A DNA stretch of 64,000 nt from Thermoanaerobaculia bacterium (GCA_963666565.1 OY762911.1:2208001-2272000); one strand, 5' to 3'. Shown: positions 30,571-43,832, numbered from the stretch's first letter. The notes: a model not told the origin generated them from the letters alone. A program made the numbers and translations.

Positions 30571-31518
30571 TCAATCGGCGGCGCTCACGAGGCGCGCCTC
30601 GACGGGCGCCGGGGGATAGAGGTTGGCGCGGTCGCCGGCGACGAAGGCGTAGACCCGGATTCCGGCCAAGTGGGCGATGTCGAGCGCCAGGCTGGACGGC
30701 GCGCCGACCGCGGCGATCGCGGGGACGCCGGCGACCGCGGCCTTCTGGACGATCTCGAAGCCGAGCCGGCCGCTGACGGCCAGGATCGTCGAGTCGAGGG
30801 GCAGCCGGCCGGCCCGGAGCGCCCGGCCGACGACCTTGTCGACCGCGTTGTGCCGGCCGATGTCCTCGTACAGCCAGAGCAGGTCGGCGTTCCGGTCCAC
30901 TACGTGGAACAGGGCGGCCGCGTGGACGCCGCCGGTGTCCTCGAAGAGGTCCTGCCGGACTCTCATCCTGGCCGGCAGACCGCTGACGACCCGGCGTTCG
31001 AGGTCCGGCGCGAGGTCGAGCGGAGGGATCGACGGCAGCCGCACCCACAGGTCTTCGAGCGAAGGCTTGCCGCAGACGCCGCAGGCGCTGGTGACCCGGA
31101 AGGCGCGCTCGCGCTCGCCGGCGTCCCGCCTGCGGCGCGCGCGCCGGCGGCCTTCGGCCGAGAGGCGAACGTCGACGGTGGCGCCGGGGACTGTGGCTTC
31201 CGGCGGCGCGGCGGTGGGGCTGTCGAGGCCGGGGAGGCCGCCGGGCGCCTGCCGGCCAGAGGGGAGTCCGGCCGACGGATCGGCGGGTTTCGCGACCCCG
31301 GCGACGTCCGCGGCGCCTTCGATCCAGCCCTCGGCGTAGAGGTAGCCGAGCGCCAGTTCGGCCTCGGCGCCGGGACTGCGCATCGTGACGACGATGGGCT
31401 CGCCGTCGACCCGGATCTCGAGCGGCTCTTCGACCGCCACCCGGTCGCGCCTCTCGCCGCCCTCGCCACGCTCGACGAGGACCTCCCGGGCTTCCGCGCC
31501 GGCGTCGCGCCTAGCCAC
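30571..31518 (-). CDS. fdhD: Formate dehydrogenase accessory sulfurtransferase
   Basis: VEEPLEI, TMRSPG, SACGVCG, TGGVHAAA and EDIGRHNAVDKVVG. Start uncertain. Confidence 0.93.
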   Translation of the reverse strand: MARRDAGAEAREVLVERGEGGERRDRVAVEEPLEIRVDGEPIVVTMRSPGAEAELALGYLYAEGWIEGAADVAGVAKPADPSAGLPSGRQAPGGLPGLDSPTAAPPEATVPGATVDVRLSAEGRRRARRRRDAGERERAFRVTSACGVCGKPSLEDLWVRLPSIPPLDLAPDLERRVVSGLPARMRVRQDLFEDTGGVHAAALFHVVDRNADLLWLYEDIGRHNAVDKVVGRALRAGRLPLDSTILAVSGRLGFEIVQKAAVAGVPAIAAVGAPSSLALDIAHLAGIRVYAFVAGDRANLYPPAPVEARLVSAAD

Positions 31519-31567
31519 GGCGGTTCGCCCGGTTTCGGCCGGGGCGGCGGCCCGGAACGGGCCATCG

Positions 31568-31761
31568 GCTGGGTGCGCGGGTCTTCCGACCCGCTGCCGC
31601 CGGAGGCGGCCGGAAAGACGCGCCGGCCGAGAGGCCGGCTCCGCTCGGCCTGGCGCCTCGGCTCGCAGCGGTCGCCGGCCTTTGGCCGGCGGCCGTGTCG
31701 TCCGGGCCGCGCCGCTTCGCGGCGCCGCCCGCAGGCGGGTCGGAAGACCCGCGCACCCAGC
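31568..31761. repeat. REPIN-like doublet of family A
   Basis: Inverted GCTGGGTGCGCGGGTCTTCCGACCCGC arms. Confidence 0.85.
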
Positions 31762-31844
31762 GGAGCGCCGGCTTCGCTCCGGCGGCCCGTTCCATGCAAG
31801 CGTGCACCGCGAGCCTTGCGAACGGCATTCCGCGGCGCGAACTC

Positions 31845-34097
31845 CTAGGCACGGCTGCGCACCCGATCTGCGGCCTGAAGGCGCCTGGACACGACGGTCC
31901 CGGCCGGTTCGACCCGTACGCGCACTCCGTACTCGGGCTCGCCGGAGTCGGGGTCCAGCGACCAGGGCAGGAGTTCCATGCACTCCGGCCAGTGGGCCTC
32001 CACGTTCCCCGGCTTGATCGGACCGAAGCGGGCCGCGAGTTCGAGCCGGGACACGGGCGACGAGACCGCCACGCGGTCGCCGTCGGCGATCCCCCTGGCC
32101 CGGCCGTCTTCCGCGTTCATCAGCAGGTCGGCGCGCTCCAGGCCGGTCAGCGCGTCGCGTTCCCCGTGGACCATCGAGTTGAACTGGCGGCCGCGGCGGG
32201 TCGAGAGGAAGAGCGCGCCGGCCTCCAGCGCGCGGCCGGCCGGCGGCGTCACGGCGTGGAAGCGGGCCCGGCCGGAAGGCGTGGCGAACCGGCCGCCCTC
32301 GAACAGGCGCTCGCTGCCCCACTGGAACTGGTCGCCCTTGCGCCGCAGGTTCTCGATGCCGGCGTAGCGGGGCTCGGCGCGGGCGATCTCGTCGCGGATT
32401 GCCGCCGTGTCCGCGAAGTCGAGCGCCCCGGCGGGTTCGGGCCGCGCCCGGCCGACGATCTCGCACAGGACCTCCCACTCGGGCCGGACCTCGCCAAGCC
32501 GCCTCGCCTCGCCGCCCCGGTAGCCGATCGGCGGCGAGAAGACGATGCGTCTCTCCGTCGTCGTCTCGGTCACGCCGCCGGGGATCTCGTAGCGGGTCGC
32601 CGCCGGCAGCAGCAGCACGGTGTCGCTCGGATCGACGAGCATCGCGCTGCTGAGCAGGATGTCCTGGTGGATCCGGAGCGCGGGCCGGTGCAGCGCGCGC
32701 TCGACCCGCTCCCGGTCGGGCGCCGTCTCGAGAAAGTTGCCGCCGAGGATCCAGAACGCGTCGATGCCGCCTTCGGCCGCGGCCTCGATCTGGCCGGTGG
32801 CGGCCAATCCGGGGCCGCGTGGCGGCTCGAAGCCCCAGACCTCGGCCCAGCGGTCGAGCGTCGCGGCTTCCGTCGCCGGCGCGCAGCCGACCTCGGACCC
32901 GCCCTGCACGCCGGAGTGGCCGCGGATGGGAACGAGGCCGGCGCCGGGCCGGCCGGGGAGGCCGCGCATCAGGCCGAGGTTGCAGAGCGCGAGCACGGTA
33001 TCGACGCCGTGCCGGTGCTGGGTGAGGCCCATCGACCAGACGAGGATCGTCTTCGGCTTTGCGCACAGGAGCGCGGCGAACCGTTCCATCTCGGCGCGGG
33101 AGGCGCCGCTGGCCGTTTCCAGCTCGCTCCAGGACGCGCTCCGCAGCGTCGCTTCGAGGGCCTCGAAGTCCTCGGTGGAGCGCTCGACGAAGCCGCGGTC
33201 GACGCCGCCGGGCAGGTCGAGGAGAGCCTTCATCGTGCCGTTCAGGAACGCGAGGTCGCCGCCGGTATCGACCGCGAACCAGTGGCTGGCCAGGTCGGTG
33301 CCGAAGACCGCGCTCGAAGCGACCGAGGGCACCCAGTAGCGCTCCAGGCCCGGCTCGCGGTACGGGTTGACGACCGCGATCTCGGCGCCGCGCCGGCGCG
33401 CGAAGTGGAGGTACTTGACGGTCACCGGCTGGTTGTTCGGCACGTTCGAGCCGAAGAAGACGATCAGGTCCGCGTCGAGCCAGTCGCGGTAGGAGTTCGT
33501 CGCGGCGCCGACTCCCAGGGAGCGCGTAAGGGCGATCGTCGAGGCCGCGTGGCAGAGGCGGGCCGCCGTGTCGACGTGCGGCGTGCCGAAGAAGCGGGCC
33601 GCCTTCTGGGCGACGTAGTACGTCTCGTTCGGGATGCCGCGCGAGGTCAGGAAGAAGGCGGCGCGCGCCGGGTTGCGCTCGCGGACCTGGGCCAGCCCGG
33701 ACGCCGCTACGTCGACCGCCTCGCGCCAGGAGATGCGCCGGAATCCCGGCTCGCCGGCCCGCCGGATCATCGGATGGGCGAGCCGCCCCAGGCCGCGCAG
33801 CGCCGTCGAGCCGCGGGCGGCCAGCGCCCCGGCGTCGGCGAGGACCGCCGGGTCGAGCGCGGGCATCGTGTTCAGTCGCAGCAGGTCGAGCCGCACCATG
33901 CACAGATGCACCCCGTCCAGCGTCCAGTCCCGCAGCCCGGAGGTCCCCAGCGCGCACCCGTCGCAGACCCCGTCGCGCAGGATGCGCCACGCGTAACCGG
34001 CCTCGTCCCGGTTGCGCCAGGCCACCTTCCCCATCTCCAGGTAGTGGCGCGGCTTGGTCTGGCCCAAGCCGAAGGGGGTCCGCAAGCTGGGACTCAC
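31845..34097 (-). CDS. FdhF/YdeP-family molybdopterin oxidoreductase
   Basis: GVCDGCALG, ARLCHAAS (Cys ligand), WSMGLTQH, PIRGHSGVQG and STRRGRQFNS; adjacent to fdhD. Confidence 0.9.
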   Translation of the reverse strand: MSPSLRTPFGLGQTKPRHYLEMGKVAWRNRDEAGYAWRILRDGVCDGCALGTSGLRDWTLDGVHLCMVRLDLLRLNTMPALDPAVLADAGALAARGSTALRGLGRLAHPMIRRAGEPGFRRISWREAVDVAASGLAQVRERNPARAAFFLTSRGIPNETYYVAQKAARFFGTPHVDTAARLCHAASTIALTRSLGVGAATNSYRDWLDADLIVFFGSNVPNNQPVTVKYLHFARRRGAEIAVVNPYREPGLERYWVPSVASSAVFGTDLASHWFAVDTGGDLAFLNGTMKALLDLPGGVDRGFVERSTEDFEALEATLRSASWSELETASGASRAEMERFAALLCAKPKTILVWSMGLTQHRHGVDTVLALCNLGLMRGLPGRPGAGLVPIRGHSGVQGGSEVGCAPATEAATLDRWAEVWGFEPPRGPGLAATGQIEAAAEGGIDAFWILGGNFLETAPDRERVERALHRPALRIHQDILLSSAMLVDPSDTVLLLPAATRYEIPGGVTETTTERRIVFSPPIGYRGGEARRLGEVRPEWEVLCEIVGRARPEPAGALDFADTAAIRDEIARAEPRYAGIENLRRKGDQFQWGSERLFEGGRFATPSGRARFHAVTPPAGRALEAGALFLSTRRGRQFNSMVHGERDALTGLERADLLMNAEDGRARGIADGDRVAVSSPVSRLELAARFGPIKPGNVEAHWPECMELLPWSLDPDSGEPEYGVRVRVEPAGTVVSRRLQAADRVRSRA

Positions 34098-34128
34098 GAG
34101 AGGATCATAGAAGAGCGAGGGCGCTAGA

Positions 34129-35997
34129 GTGTCGCCGGTGCGGATCTTCCGGGTCGTCGTGTTGGCTGTGGCGCTCCCGCCGGGCGCTGCCCTGGCGCAG
34201 AGCGGGCAGGCGGAAGTCGTTCCCGCCTTCGGGCCGGAGAACTTCGCGGTCGCGGTCGATCCGCGGGCCGACGGCTGGGACACCGAGGCGCTCAGCGAAC
34301 GGGCCGAGGCGCAACTCAAGAAGGTGGCCGGGTGGCTTGCGGAGGTCGCCGCGGGCGGGGCCGATGCCGTGCCGTCCGGCGAGGTCGCGCGGGTCGTCGA
34401 TCCGGGTTTCGAGTCGGACGGGTTCGTGCCGTCCTTGCGCTCGACGGCGAGCGCGCGGGCCGGTTCGCGCGCGGCGCGAGATGGCGCCGCGCAGGCTCCC
34501 GGCGAACTGACCGCGCGCTACCGGGGGCCGGCGTTCACCGTCGAGAGCGGGAGCGTCAGCGGCGCGGACGGGGCCTACCGAGGCGCCGAGGGGTTCCGGC
34601 GGACCCTCGGGGCGCTCGCGGAGCGGCTGGCCGGAAGCGGCCCGCCGCGGGCGGACTTCAAGCTCTACTCGATCGACGCCGGGTCGGCCGGCTTCACGAC
34701 GCTCGCGTACTTCGAGGCTTCGGTTGCCGGAGCGGGCGGCAGCCGCCAGTTGAACTCGGTCTGGTCCACGGTCTGGGGTTTGCCGGCCGACGGCGACGGC
34801 GAGCCGCTGCTGCTGCGGGTGGAGGTCGAGGGCTACGAGGAAACGGAGGCGCCCGGCGGCCCCCTCTTCGTCGACGTCACGGAATCCGCGGTCGGCCACA
34901 ACCCGAGCTACCGCGAACAGCTCCTGCAGCCGCCGGACGCCTGGCTCAACCGGATCACCAAGGCGGCCGGCTACAACAAGACCGGCTGGCAGGGGATCTC
35001 CGTCGCCGATGTGAACGGCGACGGGCTGGACGACATCTTCCTGCCCGAGCAGGGCGGCCTGCCGAACCGGCTCTACGTGCAGAATCGGAACGGCACGTTC
35101 GACGATCGCTCGGCGGAAGCGGCCGTGGACTACCTGGAGCGTGCGCTGGCCGGCCTGTTCGTCGACCTGGACAACGACGGCGACCCGGACCTGGTGCTCT
35201 CCAGCCGGCCGGCCGTACTGGTCCTGGAGAACGACGGCAGCGGCCGCTTCGCCCGGGTGCGCCACGTCGCCGGCGACATCCCCGACGGCAACTCGCTCTC
35301 GGCCGCCGACTACGACAACGACGGCGACCTCGATCTCTACGTCTGCGCCTACCGCCGCGCCTACGACGAGCGCGGCGTGGCGAGCCCGGTCCCCTACCAC
35401 GACGCGAACAACGGCGGCCGGAACGCGCTGCTCCGCAACGACGGCGGCTTCCGGTTCGTCGACGCGACGGCGGAGACCGGGCTCGACGCGAACAACCGCC
35501 GTTTCAGCCTGGCTGCCGCCTGGGAGGACGTGGACGGCGACGGCGATGCCGACCTCTACGTGGCGAACGACTACGGCCGCAACAACCTGTACCGCAACGA
35601 CGGCGGCCGCTTCGTGGACGTGGCGGGGGAGGCGGGCGTCGAGGACATCTCGTCCGGCATGTCGGTGAGCTGGGCGGACTACAACCGGGACGGCCGGATG
35701 GACCTCTACGTCGGCAACATGTTCTCGGCCGCCGGCAACCGGATCACCTACCAGCGGAAGTTCGAGCGCGACCGCCAGCGCGCCGGGCCGCTGGCCGACG
35801 TGCAACGGATGGCGCGGGGCAACTCCCTGTTCGCGGGTGCTTCGGGCGGCGGCTTCGTCGACCGCAGCGTCGAAGCGAACGTGACGATGGGCCGCTGGTC
35901 CTGGTCGTCCGTTTTCGCCGACATCGACAACGACGGCTGGGAGGATCTGGTGGTCGCCAACGGCAACCTGACCCAGACCCTCCCGGACGACCTGTGA
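34129..35997 (+). CDS. Exported FG-GAP/VCBS-repeat (CRTAC1-like) protein; N-terminal part of a predicted UGA-readthrough selenoprotein (34129-38466)
   Basis: Signal peptide; repeated DxDxDGxxDL motifs; ends PDDL-UGA with the same frame staying open for another 822 codons. Confidence 0.88.
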   Translation: MSPVRIFRVVVLAVALPPGAALAQSGQAEVVPAFGPENFAVAVDPRADGWDTEALSERAEAQLKKVAGWLAEVAAGGADAVPSGEVARVVDPGFESDGFVPSLRSTASARAGSRAARDGAAQAPGELTARYRGPAFTVESGSVSGADGAYRGAEGFRRTLGALAERLAGSGPPRADFKLYSIDAGSAGFTTLAYFEASVAGAGGSRQLNSVWSTVWGLPADGDGEPLLLRVEVEGYEETEAPGGPLFVDVTESAVGHNPSYREQLLQPPDAWLNRITKAAGYNKTGWQGISVADVNGDGLDDIFLPEQGGLPNRLYVQNRNGTFDDRSAEAAVDYLERALAGLFVDLDNDGDPDLVLSSRPAVLVLENDGSGRFARVRHVAGDIPDGNSLSAADYDNDGDLDLYVCAYRRAYDERGVASPVPYHDANNGGRNALLRNDGGFRFVDATAETGLDANNRRFSLAAAWEDVDGDGDADLYVANDYGRNNLYRNDGGRFVDVAGEAGVEDISSGMSVSWADYNRDGRMDLYVGNMFSAAGNRITYQRKFERDRQRAGPLADVQRMARGNSLFAGASGGGFVDRSVEANVTMGRWSWSSVFADIDNDGWEDLVVANGNLTQTLPDDL

Positions 35998-36008
35998 AGC
36001 TTTTTCTG

Positions 36009-36025
36009 GCGGCAGGTCGTGCCGC
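36009..36025 (+). promoter_or_regulatory. Candidate bacterial SECIS element
   Basis: GCGGCA-GGTCG-TGCCGC hairpin starting after an 11-nt spacer downstream of the in-frame TGA at 35995-35997. Confidence 0.75.
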
Positions 36026-38466
36026 GCGCGCCCGGGGTTCTGGATGACGGCTCGCCGGACGACCGGTCGCTGGAGCCCTATCTCGACGCGCTGCGCGCGC
36101 TCCACGAACGGCTGGACGAGGGCCTCTCCTTCAGCGGCAGCGAACGGAACTGCGTCTTCCTGAACCTGGGGAACGCCGGGCCGAACCGGGGCGGCGCTGG
36201 CAGCGCGGGCGGCGCTTTCGCCAACGCCTCGGCGGTGAGCGGCCTGGACTTCCCTGACGACGGGCGCGGCGTCGCCTTCCTCGACCTGGAGGGCGACGGC
36301 GACCTGGACGTGGCGCTCGGCAACCGGACCGCGCCCCGGCTGCGGTTGATGCGGAACGAACTGCCGGCGGGCGACCGGTTCGTGGCGCTGCGCCTGGAAG
36401 GCGACGGCGCCGGCACGAACCGGGACGCGGTGGGCGCGCGGGTGGAACTGGCGACGACGGACGGTGTCCTGCGGCGCTCGGTGCGCGCCGGCGAGGGCTT
36501 CCTCTCGCAGTCCAGCCGCTGGCTGCACTTCGGCCTGGGCGACGCGGACGTGGCGAGCGGCGTGACGGTCCACTGGCCCGGCGGCGCCGGCGAGACGTTC
36601 GCCGGCGTCGAGGCCGGCGGCCGCTACCGGATCGTCCAGGGCAGCGGCCGGGCGGAGGCGGCGCCCGCGCCGGCGCGGCGGACGCCGCTCGAGCCGCGGG
36701 ACCAGGCGCCGCCCGCGCCGAGCACGGGTTCCCGCGTCGTGCTGGCGCCGCGGCCGCCGGCGCCTTCCTTCACGCTTCGCCCCTTCGGCGCCTCGGAACC
36801 GGTCCCGGTCGAGGCGGGCCGCGGCCGGCCGGTGCTGCTCAACGTCTGGGCAAGCTGGTGCGCTCCCTGCCGGTCGGAACTGCGGGACCTGGCGACCGAG
36901 GAGGACGCGCTGCGCGCCGCGGGCCTGGAGGTCGCGGCCGTTTCGACAGACGGGATGGGCGAGGTGCCCGGCACGACGGAAGAGGCGGCGCGGAAGTTCA
37001 TGGACGAGGTCGGCTTCCCGTTCCTGAACGGAATGGCGACCGAGGAGACGCTGGACAAGGTCGAGATCGTCAAGAGGTCGCTCTTCGACCGCCGCTTCCC
37101 GCTGTCGCTGCCGTTCTCCCTGCTGATCGACGGCGAGGGCCGGGTCGCCGCGCTCTACCGGGGCGGCGTGGCCGCGGACGATCTGCTTACGGATCTCGAA
37201 CTGCTGGACGCGCCGGCTGCCGACCTGCGGACCGAGTCGGCGCCGTTCCCCGGCCGCTGGTACACCGATCCCCCGGAAGAGGTGTCGCTCGCGAGCTACG
37301 CGCGCTGGTACGAGGAGCGGTTCCCCGCCGAGTCGGTGGCCCTGCTGCGGCGCTCCGTGGAGGTCGAGCGGGCGCTCCTCGGCGCCGCCGGCGCGGCCTC
37401 GTTCGAGCGGCAGGGCGCGCGGGACCGCTTGTTCAGGTCGCTCCGGCGGCTGACCGTGCTGGAGAGCCGGGGCGGGAACGGCGAGGCCGCGGCCCGCTAC
37501 GCCCGCGCCGCCCTCGACCTGGAACCGGACGACCCGGCTGCACGGGCGGCTTACGAGAACGCCCGGGTCGACGCCGGCGACGTGGACGCCGTGCGCGCGG
37601 AAGTCGAGGCCGCGCTCGCGGCCGACCCTGGCAACGTCGCCGCCCGGGTCCGGCTGGCCGAACTGCTCGACGCCGAGGGCCGCACGGGCGAGGCGGTGCG
37701 GGAGCTCGGCCGCGCCGTCGACCGGAGCCCGCGCGACGTGGAACTGCGTTACCTCTACGGCCAGTTGCTCGGCAAGGCGGAGCGCCTGCGGGAGGCGATG
37801 GAGCAGTTCGCGGCGGTCGTCACCCTCGACCCGCGCCACGTCGAAGCGCACCGGGTCCTGGCGGAAGCCGCCGTGCGCAGCGACGAACTCGGGGCCGCCT
37901 GGGGCCACTACCGTGCGATCCTCGACGTCGAGCCGCGGGACGTGGAGGCGCTCTACGGCGCGGCCCGCATCGCCGCCGCCGCGGGCCGCCTGGACGAGGC
38001 CATCGACGGCTACCGGGCGCTTCTGGAACACGAACCCGGCCACGCGGCGGGCCGCCACGAACTCGGCCTCGCCCTGATCCGCGGCGGCCCCGCCGGCGCC
38101 GCCGAGGGCGCGGAACACCTCCGCCGCGCCTACGTGGAGGACCGGAACCTCCTGGCGCGAGGCAACGACATTGCCTGGACCCTGGCCACCCACCCGGACG
38201 CCGGCCGGCGCGACGGTCAGCTCGCCCTCCTGATCGCCCTGGAACTGAACGCCGTCGCCGGCGGCGCCGAGCCGGCCCTGCTTGAGACCCTGGCCGCCGC
38301 CCAGGCCGAGACCGGCGACTTCGAGACGGCGGCGCGGACCGTCGAGTCGGCGCTCCGGATCGTCGGCGCCGCGGAGGGCGCCTCGTCCGACCGGGAGCGG
38401 TTGATCGAGATGCTGAGGCGGAGACTCGAGCAGTACCGGCACGGGATCCCCGCGCGGGGCCGGTAG
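36019..38466 (+). CDS. FG-GAP end + ASPIC/UnbV + TlpA-like thioredoxin (WCAPC) + TPR; C-terminal part of the predicted selenoprotein
   Basis: DLEGDGDLDV, NRDAVGARV, GEGFLSQSSRWLHFGLG, LLNVWASWCAPC and TPRs. Same frame as 34129, with no RBS or signal peptide of its own. Confidence 0.88.
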   Translation: MPRAPGVLDDGSPDDRSLEPYLDALRALHERLDEGLSFSGSERNCVFLNLGNAGPNRGGAGSAGGAFANASAVSGLDFPDDGRGVAFLDLEGDGDLDVALGNRTAPRLRLMRNELPAGDRFVALRLEGDGAGTNRDAVGARVELATTDGVLRRSVRAGEGFLSQSSRWLHFGLGDADVASGVTVHWPGGAGETFAGVEAGGRYRIVQGSGRAEAAPAPARRTPLEPRDQAPPAPSTGSRVVLAPRPPAPSFTLRPFGASEPVPVEAGRGRPVLLNVWASWCAPCRSELRDLATEEDALRAAGLEVAAVSTDGMGEVPGTTEEAARKFMDEVGFPFLNGMATEETLDKVEIVKRSLFDRRFPLSLPFSLLIDGEGRVAALYRGGVAADDLLTDLELLDAPAADLRTESAPFPGRWYTDPPEEVSLASYARWYEERFPAESVALLRRSVEVERALLGAAGAASFERQGARDRLFRSLRRLTVLESRGGNGEAAARYARAALDLEPDDPAARAAYENARVDAGDVDAVRAEVEAALAADPGNVAARVRLAELLDAEGRTGEAVRELGRAVDRSPRDVELRYLYGQLLGKAERLREAMEQFAAVVTLDPRHVEAHRVLAEAAVRSDELGAAWGHYRAILDVEPRDVEALYGAARIAAAAGRLDEAIDGYRALLEHEPGHAAGRHELGLALIRGGPAGAAEGAEHLRRAYVEDRNLLARGNDIAWTLATHPDAGRRDGQLALLIALELNAVAGGAEPALLETLAAAQAETGDFETAARTVESALRIVGAAEGASSDRERLIEMLRRRLEQYRHGIPARGR

Positions 38467-39362: not shown

Positions 39363-39502
39363 CGACAAGCCGGCGGCGCGCGTGGAACGCTCCCCGGCTT
39401 GAACGTCAGCCTTTGCTGCCCGCGCTGGGCAGGAAGCCGTCGAACCCACGAGGTGGGAAAGAGAGCGGTACCGACAACCGGTTCGCCGCGCTGGAGACCG
39501 TC

Positions 39503-42265
39503 ATGAACCGAACGCCCATTCACCTGCTGACCCTGGCCGCGGTCCTGACGCTGCCGGCCACTGCTGGCGCCCAAGCGCCGGCCCTTCCGATCGACGAACT
39601 GATGGTGTCCCGGTCGTCGGTGATCGTCTTCGGCGAGATCCGGTCGGCCGGATTGACGTCGAGCGAGCACTCGTTCACGGACAGCCTTCTGGAAGTGGAA
39701 GACGTGTTGAAGGGTGGGGTCGCGGGCAGCCAGATTGTGGTGCGGCACCCCGGCGGCCCGGGCGAGGGGTACGCCGGGGAACGACCACTCCTGGCCGAGG
39801 GCAATCGAGTGCTGCTGTTCCTGGGTGACGAAGAGAGCGGCGCCTACTCGATCGTGGAGTATCCCCTCGGGATCTTCTGGGAGGCGCGCATGGGCCACCG
39901 ATCCTTGCTCCTGGGCTGGGGAGCAGCGGCGGGCCCCGGCGTTCCGGCGGCCACTGAGCCGGGTTCGTGGCAACGTCCGCGGGACGGCGCTCGCTTCCGC
40001 CAGTGGATCGCCGATCGGGTGGCCGGCGTCGAGCCGCCAGCCGCGCACTTCACGACCTCGACTTCCGGCACCGAAGCTCCGGTGGGATCCCCGGAGGCCA
40101 CCACCTCGCTTTGCACGCCGACATCCGACGCGTTCCAACTCGACGGAGGCTACCGGGTTCGGCTGTGCTACAGAACGCCGCAGAACGATGTCGGGCAGGG
40201 CCGATCCGGCATCTGGGCCTCCGGTCAGGCTGGCCTCTTCTGGTTCTTCAGCCGCGACAACCCCGAAGCCCTGATCAAGGTCGTGGACGGTTGCGCCTTC
40301 AACCAGCACCGATGGGTCTTCTTCGCTCCCGTTACCGACCTCGGTCTTCACCTGCAGGTATTGGGTCGGACCAAGACCTGGACGTACACGAACCCGGTCG
40401 GCAGAACAGCGCCGGCGGCGGCCGACACCGCGGCGTTCTTCTGTGCTCAGGAAGACGGCGGCCGTCCGCCGGACGGCGGCGATCCGCCGGACGACGGAAC
40501 CGACGACCCGAAGCCAGGCGAGACGTTCCGGGACAATCTTCGTTCGGGCGGTTCGGGGCCCGAACTGGTGGTGATTCCGGCTGGGACCTTCCAGATGGGC
40601 TGCTTTTCGGGCGTGACTTGCCACGACAACGAGAAGCCGGTGCATTCGGTGACGATTCCGAACGTGCTGGCGGTCGGCAAGTACGAGGTGACGTTCGCGG
40701 AATGGGACGCCTGCGTTGCGGCTGGCTCGTGCAACCATCGTCCTTCGGACAGATGGGGACGCGGATCGCATCCGGTGATGGGTGTCTCGTGGAACGACAC
40801 GAAGGACTACATGCGGTGGCTCTCGCAGGAAACGGGCGAGATCTACCGCCTGTTGAGCGAGTCGGAGTGGGAGTACGCGGCTCGCGCGGGTTCGAGGACC
40901 GCCTACTTCTGGGGAAACGAAATCGACCGTGGTCGCGCGAACTACGGCAGCTCGCGGACCGTTCCTGTCGGCTCGTTCGGTCCAAACGGATTCGGTTTGC
41001 ACGACATGCACGGGAACGTGTGGGAGTGGGCTGAGGACTGCTGGAACGACAGCTACAAGGGCGCGCCTTCAGACGGGAGCGCGTGGCTTTCGGCTGACGA
41101 TTGCTCCCTCCGCGTTTTCCGCGGCGGTTCCTGGGCCGACAGACCGGTGTATGTCCGCTCGGCGAAGCGCGGTTGGAGCCCCGCCGATCACCGAGACTTC
41201 AACATCGGCTTCCGCGTGGCCCGGATGTTCGCCAGAGGGAGCGGAAAGACGGGTCCGGACCTGGTCGTCGAGCCGCCATCGGTCGACAAGACCGAGGTGA
41301 GGCCGAACGAGGTGTTCACCATCAGGGTCAACGTCGTCAACCGGGGCAACGCGACTTCCGATGCCACCACGTTGCGGTACTACCAGTCAAGGGACCGCAC
41401 GATCGACCGCTCGGAGGACCTCGACGTTGGCACCGACCGTGTGGATTCGTTGGCTGCTGGCCGCGGCAGCACGGAGGGCGGTCCCTTGAGGGCGCCATCG
41501 ACTGCCGGCACCTACTACTTCGGCGCCTGCGTGGACTCGGTAGCGGGAGACTCGGACAGGAGCAACGACTGTTCCAGTGGGGTGCGAGTGACAGTGAGTA
41601 TGACCGGCGGCGATCCTGGATTCAACCTGGCGTCCGAGAACGCGTCGCCCAGAGGGATCACGTATGCCGGAGGCCGCTTCTTCGTGGTGGACTCCAGTGA
41701 CGAAGAGGTCTACGCCTATCGTTCAGACGGACGGCGCTACGCGAGCCTGGACTTCGACCTGCGTTCGGTCAACACGGACCCTCAGGGAATCGCCTACAAC
41801 CGGAGCGTCTTCTACGTGGTCGACGTTGGAGACGAGAAGGTGTACGCCTACCGCGACGGACGTCGGTACGCCGGCGGGGAGTTCGACCTGCATCCCGCCA
41901 ACGCATCCGCGTCGGGAATCGTGTGCGCGGCGGGTCGCTTCTACGTGGCGGACCTGAGCGACGGGAAGGTGTACGCCTATCGCGGTTCGGATGGGCGCCG
42001 AGAGACCGGCGCGGAGTTCAACTTGGCTGGCGCCAACGGATATCCGTCGGGAATCGCCTACTCCGGAAGCCGCTTCTACGTGGTGGACCGCGACGACGAC
42101 AAGGTGTACGCCTACCGCGCTTCGGACGGGAGGCGGGACTCTGGCGCGGAGTTCAAACTGGATGGCGCCAACGGCGACCCTGACGGAGTGGTCTACTACG
42201 ACGGCAAGCTCTTCGTCGTCGATTCCCGTGACGACAAGGTGTACGTTTACTCCTTGGGTGGCTAG
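39503..42265 (+). CDS. Large secreted modular protein: N-domain, Cys-flanked 'DGC' domain, FGE-sulfatase (SUMF1/EgtB-like) domain, CARDB-like domain, NHL-like repeats
   Basis: GGAG RBS and signal peptide; LFWFFSRDNPEALIKVVDGC; LSESEWEYAARAG, GLHDMHGNVWEW and RGGSW...GFRVAR; PDLVV...VVNRGN; five GIxY...FYVVD..D.KVYAY repeats. Confidence 0.85.
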   Translation: MNRTPIHLLTLAAVLTLPATAGAQAPALPIDELMVSRSSVIVFGEIRSAGLTSSEHSFTDSLLEVEDVLKGGVAGSQIVVRHPGGPGEGYAGERPLLAEGNRVLLFLGDEESGAYSIVEYPLGIFWEARMGHRSLLLGWGAAAGPGVPAATEPGSWQRPRDGARFRQWIADRVAGVEPPAAHFTTSTSGTEAPVGSPEATTSLCTPTSDAFQLDGGYRVRLCYRTPQNDVGQGRSGIWASGQAGLFWFFSRDNPEALIKVVDGCAFNQHRWVFFAPVTDLGLHLQVLGRTKTWTYTNPVGRTAPAAADTAAFFCAQEDGGRPPDGGDPPDDGTDDPKPGETFRDNLRSGGSGPELVVIPAGTFQMGCFSGVTCHDNEKPVHSVTIPNVLAVGKYEVTFAEWDACVAAGSCNHRPSDRWGRGSHPVMGVSWNDTKDYMRWLSQETGEIYRLLSESEWEYAARAGSRTAYFWGNEIDRGRANYGSSRTVPVGSFGPNGFGLHDMHGNVWEWAEDCWNDSYKGAPSDGSAWLSADDCSLRVFRGGSWADRPVYVRSAKRGWSPADHRDFNIGFRVARMFARGSGKTGPDLVVEPPSVDKTEVRPNEVFTIRVNVVNRGNATSDATTLRYYQSRDRTIDRSEDLDVGTDRVDSLAAGRGSTEGGPLRAPSTAGTYYFGACVDSVAGDSDRSNDCSSGVRVTVSMTGGDPGFNLASENASPRGITYAGGRFFVVDSSDEEVYAYRSDGRRYASLDFDLRSVNTDPQGIAYNRSVFYVVDVGDEKVYAYRDGRRYAGGEFDLHPANASASGIVCAAGRFYVADLSDGKVYAYRGSDGRRETGAEFNLAGANGYPSGIAYSGSRFYVVDRDDDKVYAYRASDGRRDSGAEFKLDGANGDPDGVVYYDGKLFVVDSRDDKVYVYSLGG

Positions 42266-42806: not shown

Positions 42807-43832
42807 ATGTCCGAGAAACCGAAATCGCCGAGCCAGTCGAGGCGGATCGCCCAACCCCACGACGCTCTGTTCCGGCGCGTGTTCTCCGAGCCGGCGCAGG
42901 CCGCCGCCCTGTTGCGCGAGTCCCTGCCCGCGGCCGTGCGGGACCGCTTCGACTGGAACACGCTGAGGCGCCTCCCGGACACCTTCGTCGACGAACGGCT
43001 CCGGCGGACCGAATCCGATCTCCTGTTCGAGGTCGACCAGCCGGGCGGCGAACCGCCGGCGCGGCTCTACGTGCTGATCGAGCATCAGTCCTCGCCCGAC
43101 CCGTTCATGGCGCTGCGCCTGCTGCGCTACTGCACCAGCATCCTGGAGGCGGCGGTCCGCGAGGCACCGGAGCGGAAGCGCCTTCCGCCGGTTCTGCCCG
43201 TCGTGTTCCACCAGGGGCGGCGTCCCTGGCCGTATCCGGCGTCTCTCGACGGGTTGTTGGGGGAATCGGCGCGTGAACTGCCCTGGGGGCCGCGGCTCGA
43301 CTTCCTGCTGCTGGACCAGGGCGCCGGCGGGACGTCCACGGTGGTGGGCTCGCCCCTGGGCCGGCTGGCGCAGTATCTGATGCTCGCCGTCTCGGGGCCG
43401 GAGTCCGAGCGGTCGGCGGCTCTTGAGCGGGCGGTGGAGTTGATGCGAGACTTGTGGTCGGCCGAGAGGCGGTACGACCTTGAGGTGGTCTACAGCTACG
43501 TGTTCGGCGGAAAGGAGGACCCGACCGTGATGGAGACAGTCGATGCGATGCTGAAGGAGATCGAGGCGAGGAGTCCGGACAAGCCGAAGAGCTTGGCCCA
43601 GTACGTCTGGGAGAACGGGCAGAGAAGAGGCCGGGCGGAAGGCCGCTCGGAAGGCCGTGCGGAGGGGGTCCGGCTCGGCGAACGCCGCGCCACGCTTGCG
43701 ACGGTCGAGGGCTTGCTGCGGGCGGGCGTGGACTGGCCGGTGATCAAGTCGGCGACCGGCCTCGACCGGCGCGGGTTCGACGCGCTCAAGGAGAAGCTGG
43801 GTTCCGGCCGGTCCGGACCAGCGGCGAGATAG
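42807..43832 (+). CDS. Rpn-family recombination-promoting nuclease / putative transposase (copy 1)
   Basis: PHDALFRRVF, SDLLF, YVLIEHQSSPDPFMALRLLRY, LPPVLPVVFHQG and C-terminal GRAEG repeats. Confidence 0.93.
   Translation: MSEKPKSPSQSRRIAQPHDALFRRVFSEPAQAAALLRESLPAAVRDRFDWNTLRRLPDTFVDERLRRTESDLLFEVDQPGGEPPARLYVLIEHQSSPDPFMALRLLRYCTSILEAAVREAPERKRLPPVLPVVFHQGRRPWPYPASLDGLLGESARELPWGPRLDFLLLDQGAGGTSTVVGSPLGRLAQYLMLAVSGPESERSAALERAVELMRDLWSAERRYDLEVVYSYVFGGKEDPTVMETVDAMLKEIEARSPDKPKSLAQYVWENGQRRGRAEGRSEGRAEGVRLGERRATLATVEGLLRAGVDWPVIKSATGLDRRGFDALKEKLGSGRSGPAAR

Follow-up and report, generated by a model that had tools for sequence, protein, structure and literature searches.

An in-frame UGA in a CRTAC1-type beta-propeller gene of a Thermoanaerobaculia bacterium probably encodes selenocysteine

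Does the TGA at positions 35995-35997 of a stretch of DNA from a Thermoanaerobaculia bacterium end one gene shortly before the next begins, or is it a selenocysteine (Sec) codon inside a single gene? The stretch, which we call the window, is 64,000 nucleotides long (GCA_963666565.1 OY762911.1:2208001-2272000), and positions are counted from its first letter. Two open reading frames (ORFs) on its plus strand, 34129-35997 (622 residues) and 36019-38466 (815 residues), lie in one frame, and the sole stop between them is this TGA, in the context ...TQTLPDDL*SFFWRQVVP.... Read through, it gives a protein of 1445 residues that ends at the TAG at 38464-38466. An earlier reading of the sequence (hereafter the original prediction) had remarked on the shared frame with TGA as its only separator, which the ORF coordinates bear out, and had proposed that standard annotation wrongly splits one gene in two. 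The halves are indeed recorded as separate proteins in NCBI and ENA, and we agree that they belong together. As a whole, we think it very probable that the locus is best explained as a single gene whose product is an exported selenoprotein with several domains, about 1445 residues long, in which the UGA would be read by means of a selenocysteine insertion sequence (SECIS), and for which a redox relay would be the likeliest role.

The answer begins with the codons that follow the TGA, which we compared in 69 distinct TGA-bearing homologs (TGA forms). Codon +1 specifies Ser by way of AGC, AGT or TCG, while codons +4, +5 and +7 specify Trp, Arg and Val in all 69, the Arg being encoded by CGC, CGG, CGA or CGT and the Val by GTC, GTT or GTG. 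The first in-frame start-like codon is found at +7 in 16 forms and at +8 in 45, so that 61 of the 69 have none before +7; four forms have such a codon at +2 or +3. Homologs with a sense codon at the site (sense forms) run uninterrupted through DL-x-SFFWRQVV. Our conclusion, as far as aligned codons can speak to it, is that the codons following the TGA evolve as coding sequence.

Just downstream of the TGA lies the hairpin that the original prediction had described, 17 nucleotides long after a spacer of 11 nucleotides (35998-36008). At 36009-36025 on the plus strand, GCGGCA (36009-36014) can pair with TGCCGC (36020-36025) across the loop GGTCG (36015-36019; GGUCG in the RNA), leaving 17 nucleotides between UGA and loop, and the whole element overlies the codons W-R-Q-V-V-P-R. 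The bacterial SECIS model, as set out in a May 2026 review (PMC13188914), has a loop of 3-9 nucleotides with a G in its first two positions, 16-37 nucleotides from the UGA. The geometry at 36009-36025 fits this model, being a stem-loop right after the UGA with a 6-bp stem and a 5-nucleotide loop that begins GG; it differs from the model in that the stem here overlies a conserved peptide motif. A scan against Rfam returned two chance microRNA matches only.

Comparison among homologs is more informative than the geometry. When 64 distinct TGA forms are aligned, 93.2% of the cells are paired, a value reached by none of 500 shuffles, and with slid controls the figure is 19-69%. The middle pair is CG in 29 of these forms, GC in 20, GU in seven, UA in four, AU in two and something else in the remaining two. 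On the 5' side this pair uses the third, synonymous position of the codon for the invariant Arg; on the 3' side it uses the middle base of a codon for Pro, Ser, Ala or Thr, four codons on. Because a conserved peptide motif underlies the stem, the third position of the Arg codon thus covaries with which residue is encoded four codons later. By comparison, 61.1% of the cells are paired in 18 sense forms, a level that shuffles also attain, and 13 of these forms do not make the middle pair. All six in-register pairs are present in 58 of 70 distinct TGA forms but in only one of the 18 sense forms, and the mean energy of the 26-nucleotide segment is -11.9 kcal/mol in TGA forms versus -6.2 kcal/mol in sense forms. 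A conserved hairpin in TGA-bearing homologs had been expected, and the alignments go further, indicating that the hairpin is under selection only in the TGA forms.

The TGA itself was followed across genomes. An ortholog with exactly one TGA, in the same aligned column, is present in all 24 same-genus genomes, and all 24 keep the read-through frame of the gene (34129-38466, plus strand; 1445 codons, with a GTG start, GAGG 8 nucleotides upstream and a TAG stop). In a sample of 301 genomes from the phylum, the family occurs in 64. Of 77 copies listed from these, 59 (in 49 genomes) contain one TGA and 18 contain none, and all 56 TGA copies that were fetched have the TGA at that column. Outside the phylum sample there are at least 12 more TGA forms, in records labelled Planctomycetota, Phycisphaerae, Vicinamibacteria and Gemmatimonadetes and under three labels within Verrucomicrobiota (Roseibacillus, Verrucomicrobiales and Akkermansiaceae); near-identical halves are found in databases under the labels Holophagales or Acidobacteria. 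It should be said that the phylum counts, the hairpin sets and the tree discussed below include two unpublished genomes, G088 with a TGA form and G189 with a sense form, and that G063 enters the SelA tally only; if the three are left out, each count shifts by one and the conclusions are the same. A check of the TGA in sequence data had also been proposed, and the TGA is present in sequencing-run contigs of two studies, one of which may be the source sample.

A second subfamily (B), rarer in the phylum sample, has a TGA at the same site, followed instead by the peptide LPYILGAVAH. Its hairpin has a GGUC loop and stems of either GCGC/GCGC or GUGC/GCAC, a compensatory change. Subfamily B loci (L034, L035, L036 with two tandem copies, L038, L039, and also L218 and L224) encode proteins of about 820-860 residues with no fused redoxin domain. 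At one of them a separate gene for a TlpA-like lipoprotein (FWATWCQPC) lies two genes away, and at another there is a TPR gene; further neighbours in this subfamily are an acyltransferase and an FAD amine oxidase.

All four genes of the Sec machinery for which a search had been suggested, selA, selB, selC and selD, were found in the genome, which encodes SelA (335 bits), the SelB wing domain, SelD (219.7 bits) and a tRNA-Sec with anticodon TCA (74 bits). SelA gives a strong match in 46 of the 49 TGA-form genomes, compared with 241 of 301 in the phylum sample as a whole. Four of the 15 sense-only genomes are without a strong match, and all four belong to one genus. Scanning the genome for in-frame TGAs with coding-like flanks yielded 74 candidates, seven of which were compared to NCBIfam. 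Four of the seven exceed curated cut-offs (WAxxUGC_long, 486 bits against 300; UGSC, 151 and 127.7 against 125; AhpD_rel_CFYUT, 336 against 175), and two, a Prx-type WUPYC protein and a PrdB/GrdB-type UPVC protein, fall below; the seventh was rejected as a selenoprotein, being merely two adjacent genes. The six further TGA genes lie outside the window, at C1:1177399(+), 2172334(-), 4259244(-), 4074554(+), 1133915(+) and 3877257(-). A GGUCG loop also occurs in the hairpin of the Prx-like gene, and the other selenoprotein genes here have small G-containing loops. No Sec-type FdhA (TIGR01553) scores above the cut-off in the genome, and none of the genome's other FG-GAP/UnbV paralogs has a TGA at this site.

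Several observations weigh against reading the UGA as Sec, or against the weight that we place on the hairpin. Folding alone is unexceptional (z +0.58 and +0.93 versus shuffles), and a generic SECIS-like hairpin with a stem of at least 6 bp follows 24% of 20,000 random TGA triplets in this genome of 70% G+C. The stem is partly dictated by the codons of W-R-Q-V-V, and at least five pairs survive in five of the 18 sense forms. Twelve of the 70 TGA forms are without all six in-register pairs, ten of them having four or fewer, with folding in a shifted register, and the cell counts overstate the number of independent events because the rows are related. One sense form, locus L060 of genome G125, has GAG at the site and keeps the full 6-bp GGUCG hairpin; perhaps its Sec was lost not long ago, or perhaps its W-R-Q-V-V-A-R codons produce the hairpin incidentally. 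SelA was not found in three of the 49 TGA-form genomes, and those three carry a tRNA-Sec at 68-76 bits. Finally, in RNA run X19 the TGA position is uncovered by reads.

Against these points, single-sequence folding likewise misses the SECIS elements of known selenoprotein genes in this genome, and a generic-type hairpin with a GGTC loop follows only 18 of the 20,000 random TGA triplets. It is because of the comparative evidence, and not the hairpin alone, that the feature rises above chance. With the Sec machinery present, the TGA in the same column across many lineages and covariation of the hairpin seen in TGA forms only, we regard it as very probable indeed that the UGA encodes Sec, at residue 623 (35995-35997, plus strand) as originally predicted. 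A ribosome arriving at this UGA would then meet the hairpin at 36009-36025, which would recruit SelB with Sec-tRNA(Sec); Sec would be inserted as residue 623 and translation would continue, the SECIS being built into the codons of the conserved S-F-F-W-R-Q-V-V.

What kind of protein would contain this Sec? The gene appears to begin with an N-terminal signal peptide of about 25 residues that ends ...GAALA-QS (34129-34203, plus strand; judged by eye from the translation), and the leaders of homologs, again from translations, are of the signal or lipoprotein type. Residues 30-270 (34216-34938), the roughly 240 residues ahead of the propeller, have no Pfam match at E < 0.01; the region is conserved in homologs, for one of which a DUF4440/NTF2-like hit is listed. 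There follow, all on the plus strand, an FG-GAP beta-propeller interrupted by the TGA (34996-36363; Pfam FG-GAP_3 and FG-GAP), a UnbV_ASPIC domain (residues 767-833, 36427-36627; Pfam, E 1.3e-16), a ResA/TlpA-like redoxin domain of the AhpC-TSA/Redoxin type (residues 877-1013, 36757-37167; Pfam AhpC-TSA, 43.3 bits against a cut-off of 26, and Foldseek) with the motif WCAPC at residues 910-914 (36856-36870), and Pfam TPR repeats (residues 1148-1320, 37570-38088). The original prediction had the FG-GAP repeats continuing past the stop and then ASPIC/UnbV, a thioredoxin-type domain and TPR, and Pfam finds that order. Because FG-GAP repeats flank the TGA on both sides, a stop at this point cuts the propeller.

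We modelled residues 270-1030, including the propeller, with AlphaFold2 using 50 aligned sequences (mean predicted local distance difference test, pLDDT, 91.8; predicted template modelling score, pTM, 0.92; pLDDT 94 at model residues 351-360). Sec623, model residue 354, is the first residue of helix 354-364, which with a second helix (376-394) forms a two-helix insertion, residues 623-663 (35995-36117, plus strand), in the all-beta propeller; WCAPC comes before model helix 643-654. Reactive Cys or Sec residues of thioredoxin-fold enzymes and peroxidases usually sit at the N-terminus of a helix. The best Foldseek match is the crystal structure of murine CRTAC1 (9etn_A; E 9.9e-26, template modelling (TM) score 0.71 on the target, 621 columns). 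CRTAC1 is also the only solved relative by sequence (E 9.5e-18), and the alignment leaves the insertion at 623-663 uncovered. The two share the FG-GAP and UnbV_ASPIC pair, above Pfam cut-offs, and both are secreted, but CRTAC1 has no Sec and neither redoxin nor TPR modules.

The redoxin domain, for its part, folds like ResA over residues 877-1013 (TM 0.85, 25% identity), also matches TlpA and DsbE in the fold comparison, and like them has WCxxC before a helix. Since the TlpA and ResA equivalog cut-offs are not reached, we take it to be a domain of that type rather than an ortholog, and it differs from those proteins in being fused behind a propeller, where they are stand-alone and membrane-anchored, and in having as its presumed client a selenol that belongs to the same polypeptide. 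TlpA-like selenoproteins (the ResA-like WAxxUGC and UGC-containing TlpA proteins) are likewise extracytoplasmic thioredoxin-fold proteins of Sec-using bacteria. However, their Sec is within the thioredoxin-fold active site, whereas here the redoxin domain keeps CxxC and the Sec is some 290 residues upstream in another fold, outside any UxxC or CxxU motif as the original prediction correctly stated. The read-through protein scores 29 bits with the WAxxUGC model against a cut-off of 300, the WAxxUGC_long protein (486 bits) being encoded elsewhere in the genome.

We propose that Sec623 would act as a redox-active selenol, regenerated by the WCxxC of the fused redoxin domain or exchanging electrons with it, so that the protein would work outside the cytoplasm as a Sec-CxxC relay enzyme, and its TPR repeats would bind partners. 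We judge such a relay the likeliest function because a CxxC domain like that of ResA and TlpA is present in each of the 33 Sec forms checked. A CxxC of any kind is found 150-470 residues downstream of the site in 33 of 33 Sec forms, five of 12 Cys forms and 20 of 81 other forms, and the figures for an aromatic-CxxC at that distance are 31 of 33, four of 12 and one of 81. The redoxin domain is retained in all examined Sec forms of subfamily A. The original prediction had suggested that the WCAPC domain could recycle the Sec; the near-restriction of aromatic-CxxC to Sec forms, relative to the non-Cys sense forms, lends this some support, and the recycling step itself we put at about an even chance. 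The difficulties are that a CxxC is missing from seven of the 12 Cys forms, that the Sec-versus-CxxC counts are without phylogenetic correction, and that a test of independent pairs finds only three on well-supported branches. Complex prediction with the propeller and redoxin parts of a Cys-form homolog (P0006) scored 0.00, which speaks neither for nor against contact. Cys675 (ERNC) was considered as a resolving cysteine and rejected, as it is not conserved among 20 Sec forms and the association is only weak.

The residues found at the site in sense forms complicate this proposal. An alternation of TGA with Cys had been expected and was not found. Among 60 sense homologs, six of them distant rows without the motif, the site is S in 14, C and D in 11 each, A in five, G in four, H and E in three each, Q, Y and N in two each, R and L in one each, and a gap in one. 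Among a further 45 it is E in ten, N and S in eight each, A in six, D in five, R and Q in two each, and G, M, L and C in one each; this second set came from a protein-representative search whose top ranks are dominated by long multi-repeat FG-GAP proteins and by sense forms, and it is unfit for estimating the share of Sec forms. The sense residues are thus mostly S, D, E, N, A or G, and so low a frequency of Cys (11 of 60, and one of 45) is unusual for a catalytic Sec. An unrooted FastTree tree of 143 rows contains at least 13 changes between U and sense, at least four of them on well-supported branches, and several deep clades are all U. Without a root to give the direction of these changes, we consider repeated losses of Sec likelier than repeated origins, at one site, of a TGA with its SECIS. 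Taken together, the non-Cys sense residues, the changes in the tree and the Cys forms that have no CxxC leave room for a metal-ligand role of the Sec or a regulatory role of the UGA.

There are two ways in which Sec might be inserted and yet not serve a relay. The first is that the Sec is a ligand for a metal or metalloid in the propeller insertion, with the sense residues acting as alternative ligands. Most of those residues could indeed ligate (S, D, E, N, H, Q, C and Y), the D two residues before Sec is invariant in 20 Sec forms, and by Pfam the FG-GAP repeats bear DxDxDG loops of the calcium-binding type; such loops are linked with calcium. Yet the non-ligating A and G are also common at the site (nine of 60 and seven of 45), no metal-binding family is among the Pfam and NCBIfam matches, and the CxxC redoxin domain found in every one of the 33 Sec forms would be superfluous for a pure metal site. 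We therefore consider a metal-ligand role unlikely.

The second is that the UGA and SECIS serve mainly as a selenium-dependent gate on translation, low selenium giving the 622-residue propeller fragment and sufficient selenium the full protein, with any selenol chemistry secondary. The tolerance of chemically unrelated residues at the site, with Cys in only 12 of 105 sense homologs, and the many U/sense changes in the tree would suit a gate. On the other hand, truncation would cut a propeller blade, so the short product would probably be unfolded, and a gate explains neither the position of the Sec at a helix N-terminus beside invariant residues nor its co-occurrence with aromatic-CxxC; sections 5 and 7 of PMC13188914 describe no gate of this kind. 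We rate this explanation as very unlikely, and continue to prefer a Sec that takes part in redox chemistry.

That the TGA is a true stop, separating two genes by a conserved split or marking a pseudogene, is the explanation implicit in public annotation. It can point to the halves recorded as separate proteins in NCBI and ENA, to C-terminal halves of about 800 residues making up 60 of the 120 database relatives listed, and to a GTG seven codons past the TGA. But the seven codons from the TGA to that GTG are under protein-level selection, and in four of the 69 TGA forms the first 14 codons include no start-like codon at all. A stop would cut a propeller blade where sense homologs are continuous through the site, and it would leave the second ORF, whose redoxin domain is of a type that acts outside the cytoplasm (ResA/TlpA), with no signal peptide. 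Nor would a pseudogene, across four or more phyla, retain both a TGA in a single column and a hairpin that covaries, and we give a true stop very little credence. Weakest of all is read-through without Sec, by a near-cognate Trp or Cys tRNA or a deviant genetic code, which would likewise yield the full-length product and has nothing specific in its favour, and which we consider scarcely credible given that the genome's other in-frame TGAs are at known Sec positions of UGSC, WAxxUGC and CFYUT selenoproteins, that SelA or tRNA-Sec is present in all 49 TGA-form genomes, that the hairpin covaries in TGA forms only, and that no Trp occurs at the site in 105 sense homologs.

The surroundings of the gene can be described briefly. 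Upstream, the minus strand encodes a molybdopterin oxidoreductase, FdhD and GcvP, and the divergent orientation of the selenoprotein gene relative to the molybdoenzyme and fdhD had been correctly described. The molybdopterin oxidoreductase and FdhD occupy 30571-34319 of the window (minus strand); the longest ORF for the molybdoenzyme, from a TTG at 34319, would overlap the start of the selenoprotein gene, so that its true start is probably further in. Directly downstream, a large ORF at 39413-42265 (plus strand) with FGE-sulfatase and CARDB domains may encode a relative of formylglycine-generating enzymes or of ergothioneine-type C-S oxidases, and about 4 kb downstream an ORF at 42807-43832 (plus strand) has a YhgA-like Transposase_31 domain (E 2.5e-38). 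Two genomes that share a genus have selA downstream of the TGA-bearing gene, at distances of 1.6 kb and 5 kb (G060:C1:1155171-1158285 and G212:C9:32301-38712).

Has the family been described before? The read-through protein reaches the cut-off of no model in NCBIfam release 20, and the public names of the C-terminal halves are 'tetratricopeptide repeat protein'. Table 1 of the May 2026 review lists 119 prokaryotic selenoprotein families and, as given in section 7 of the text, has no FG-GAP, UnbV_ASPIC or TPR entry (PMC13188914). The family terms FG-GAP, UnbV_ASPIC and TPR are likewise absent from the main texts of that review, the deep-Sep paper (PMC12013277), the GOS paper (PMC2398784) and a 2022 review (PMC9312934). 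Searches of the full-text literature, whose scope excludes supplementary tables and subscription journals, returned nothing relevant for selenoprotein with FG-GAP, selenocysteine with ASPIC, or selenocysteine with CRTAC1. The family is, we think, probably new to the literature.

This large and widespread family stands in public records as two unrelated ORFs, a 'tetratricopeptide repeat protein' and a propeller fragment, so that selenoproteome counts are too low for Acidobacteriota, Planctomycetota, Verrucomicrobiota and Gemmatimonadota, and a model for the family would correct many annotations. Gene finders for selenoproteins rely on Sec/Cys pairs, and a family with mostly non-Cys sense residues and a SECIS inside a conserved peptide motif would for that reason make useful test cases. 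The Sec itself would be placed in a fold and sequence context unlike the UxxC and CxxU motifs of thioredoxin-fold proteins, at the N-terminus of a helix in a propeller insertion, with a CxxC domain fused in the same chain. We advance, tentatively and at somewhat less than even odds in our own estimation, the broader view that this is the first selenoenzyme on a CRTAC1-type beta-propeller, an ancient relay from Sec to CxxC outside the cytoplasm, present in four or more phyla, that was later disarmed in many lineages, a non-redox residue replacing Sec and the CxxC decaying, while the propeller was kept for a second, non-redox role. To our knowledge, CRTAC1-type proteins have no known molecular activity, and a bacterial relative with what is, by sequence, an evident redox apparatus provides a testable lead on what that activity might be. 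If a relay on a CRTAC1-type propeller proves true, it would represent new redox chemistry and a hint at the role of the ASPIC/CRTAC1 fold.

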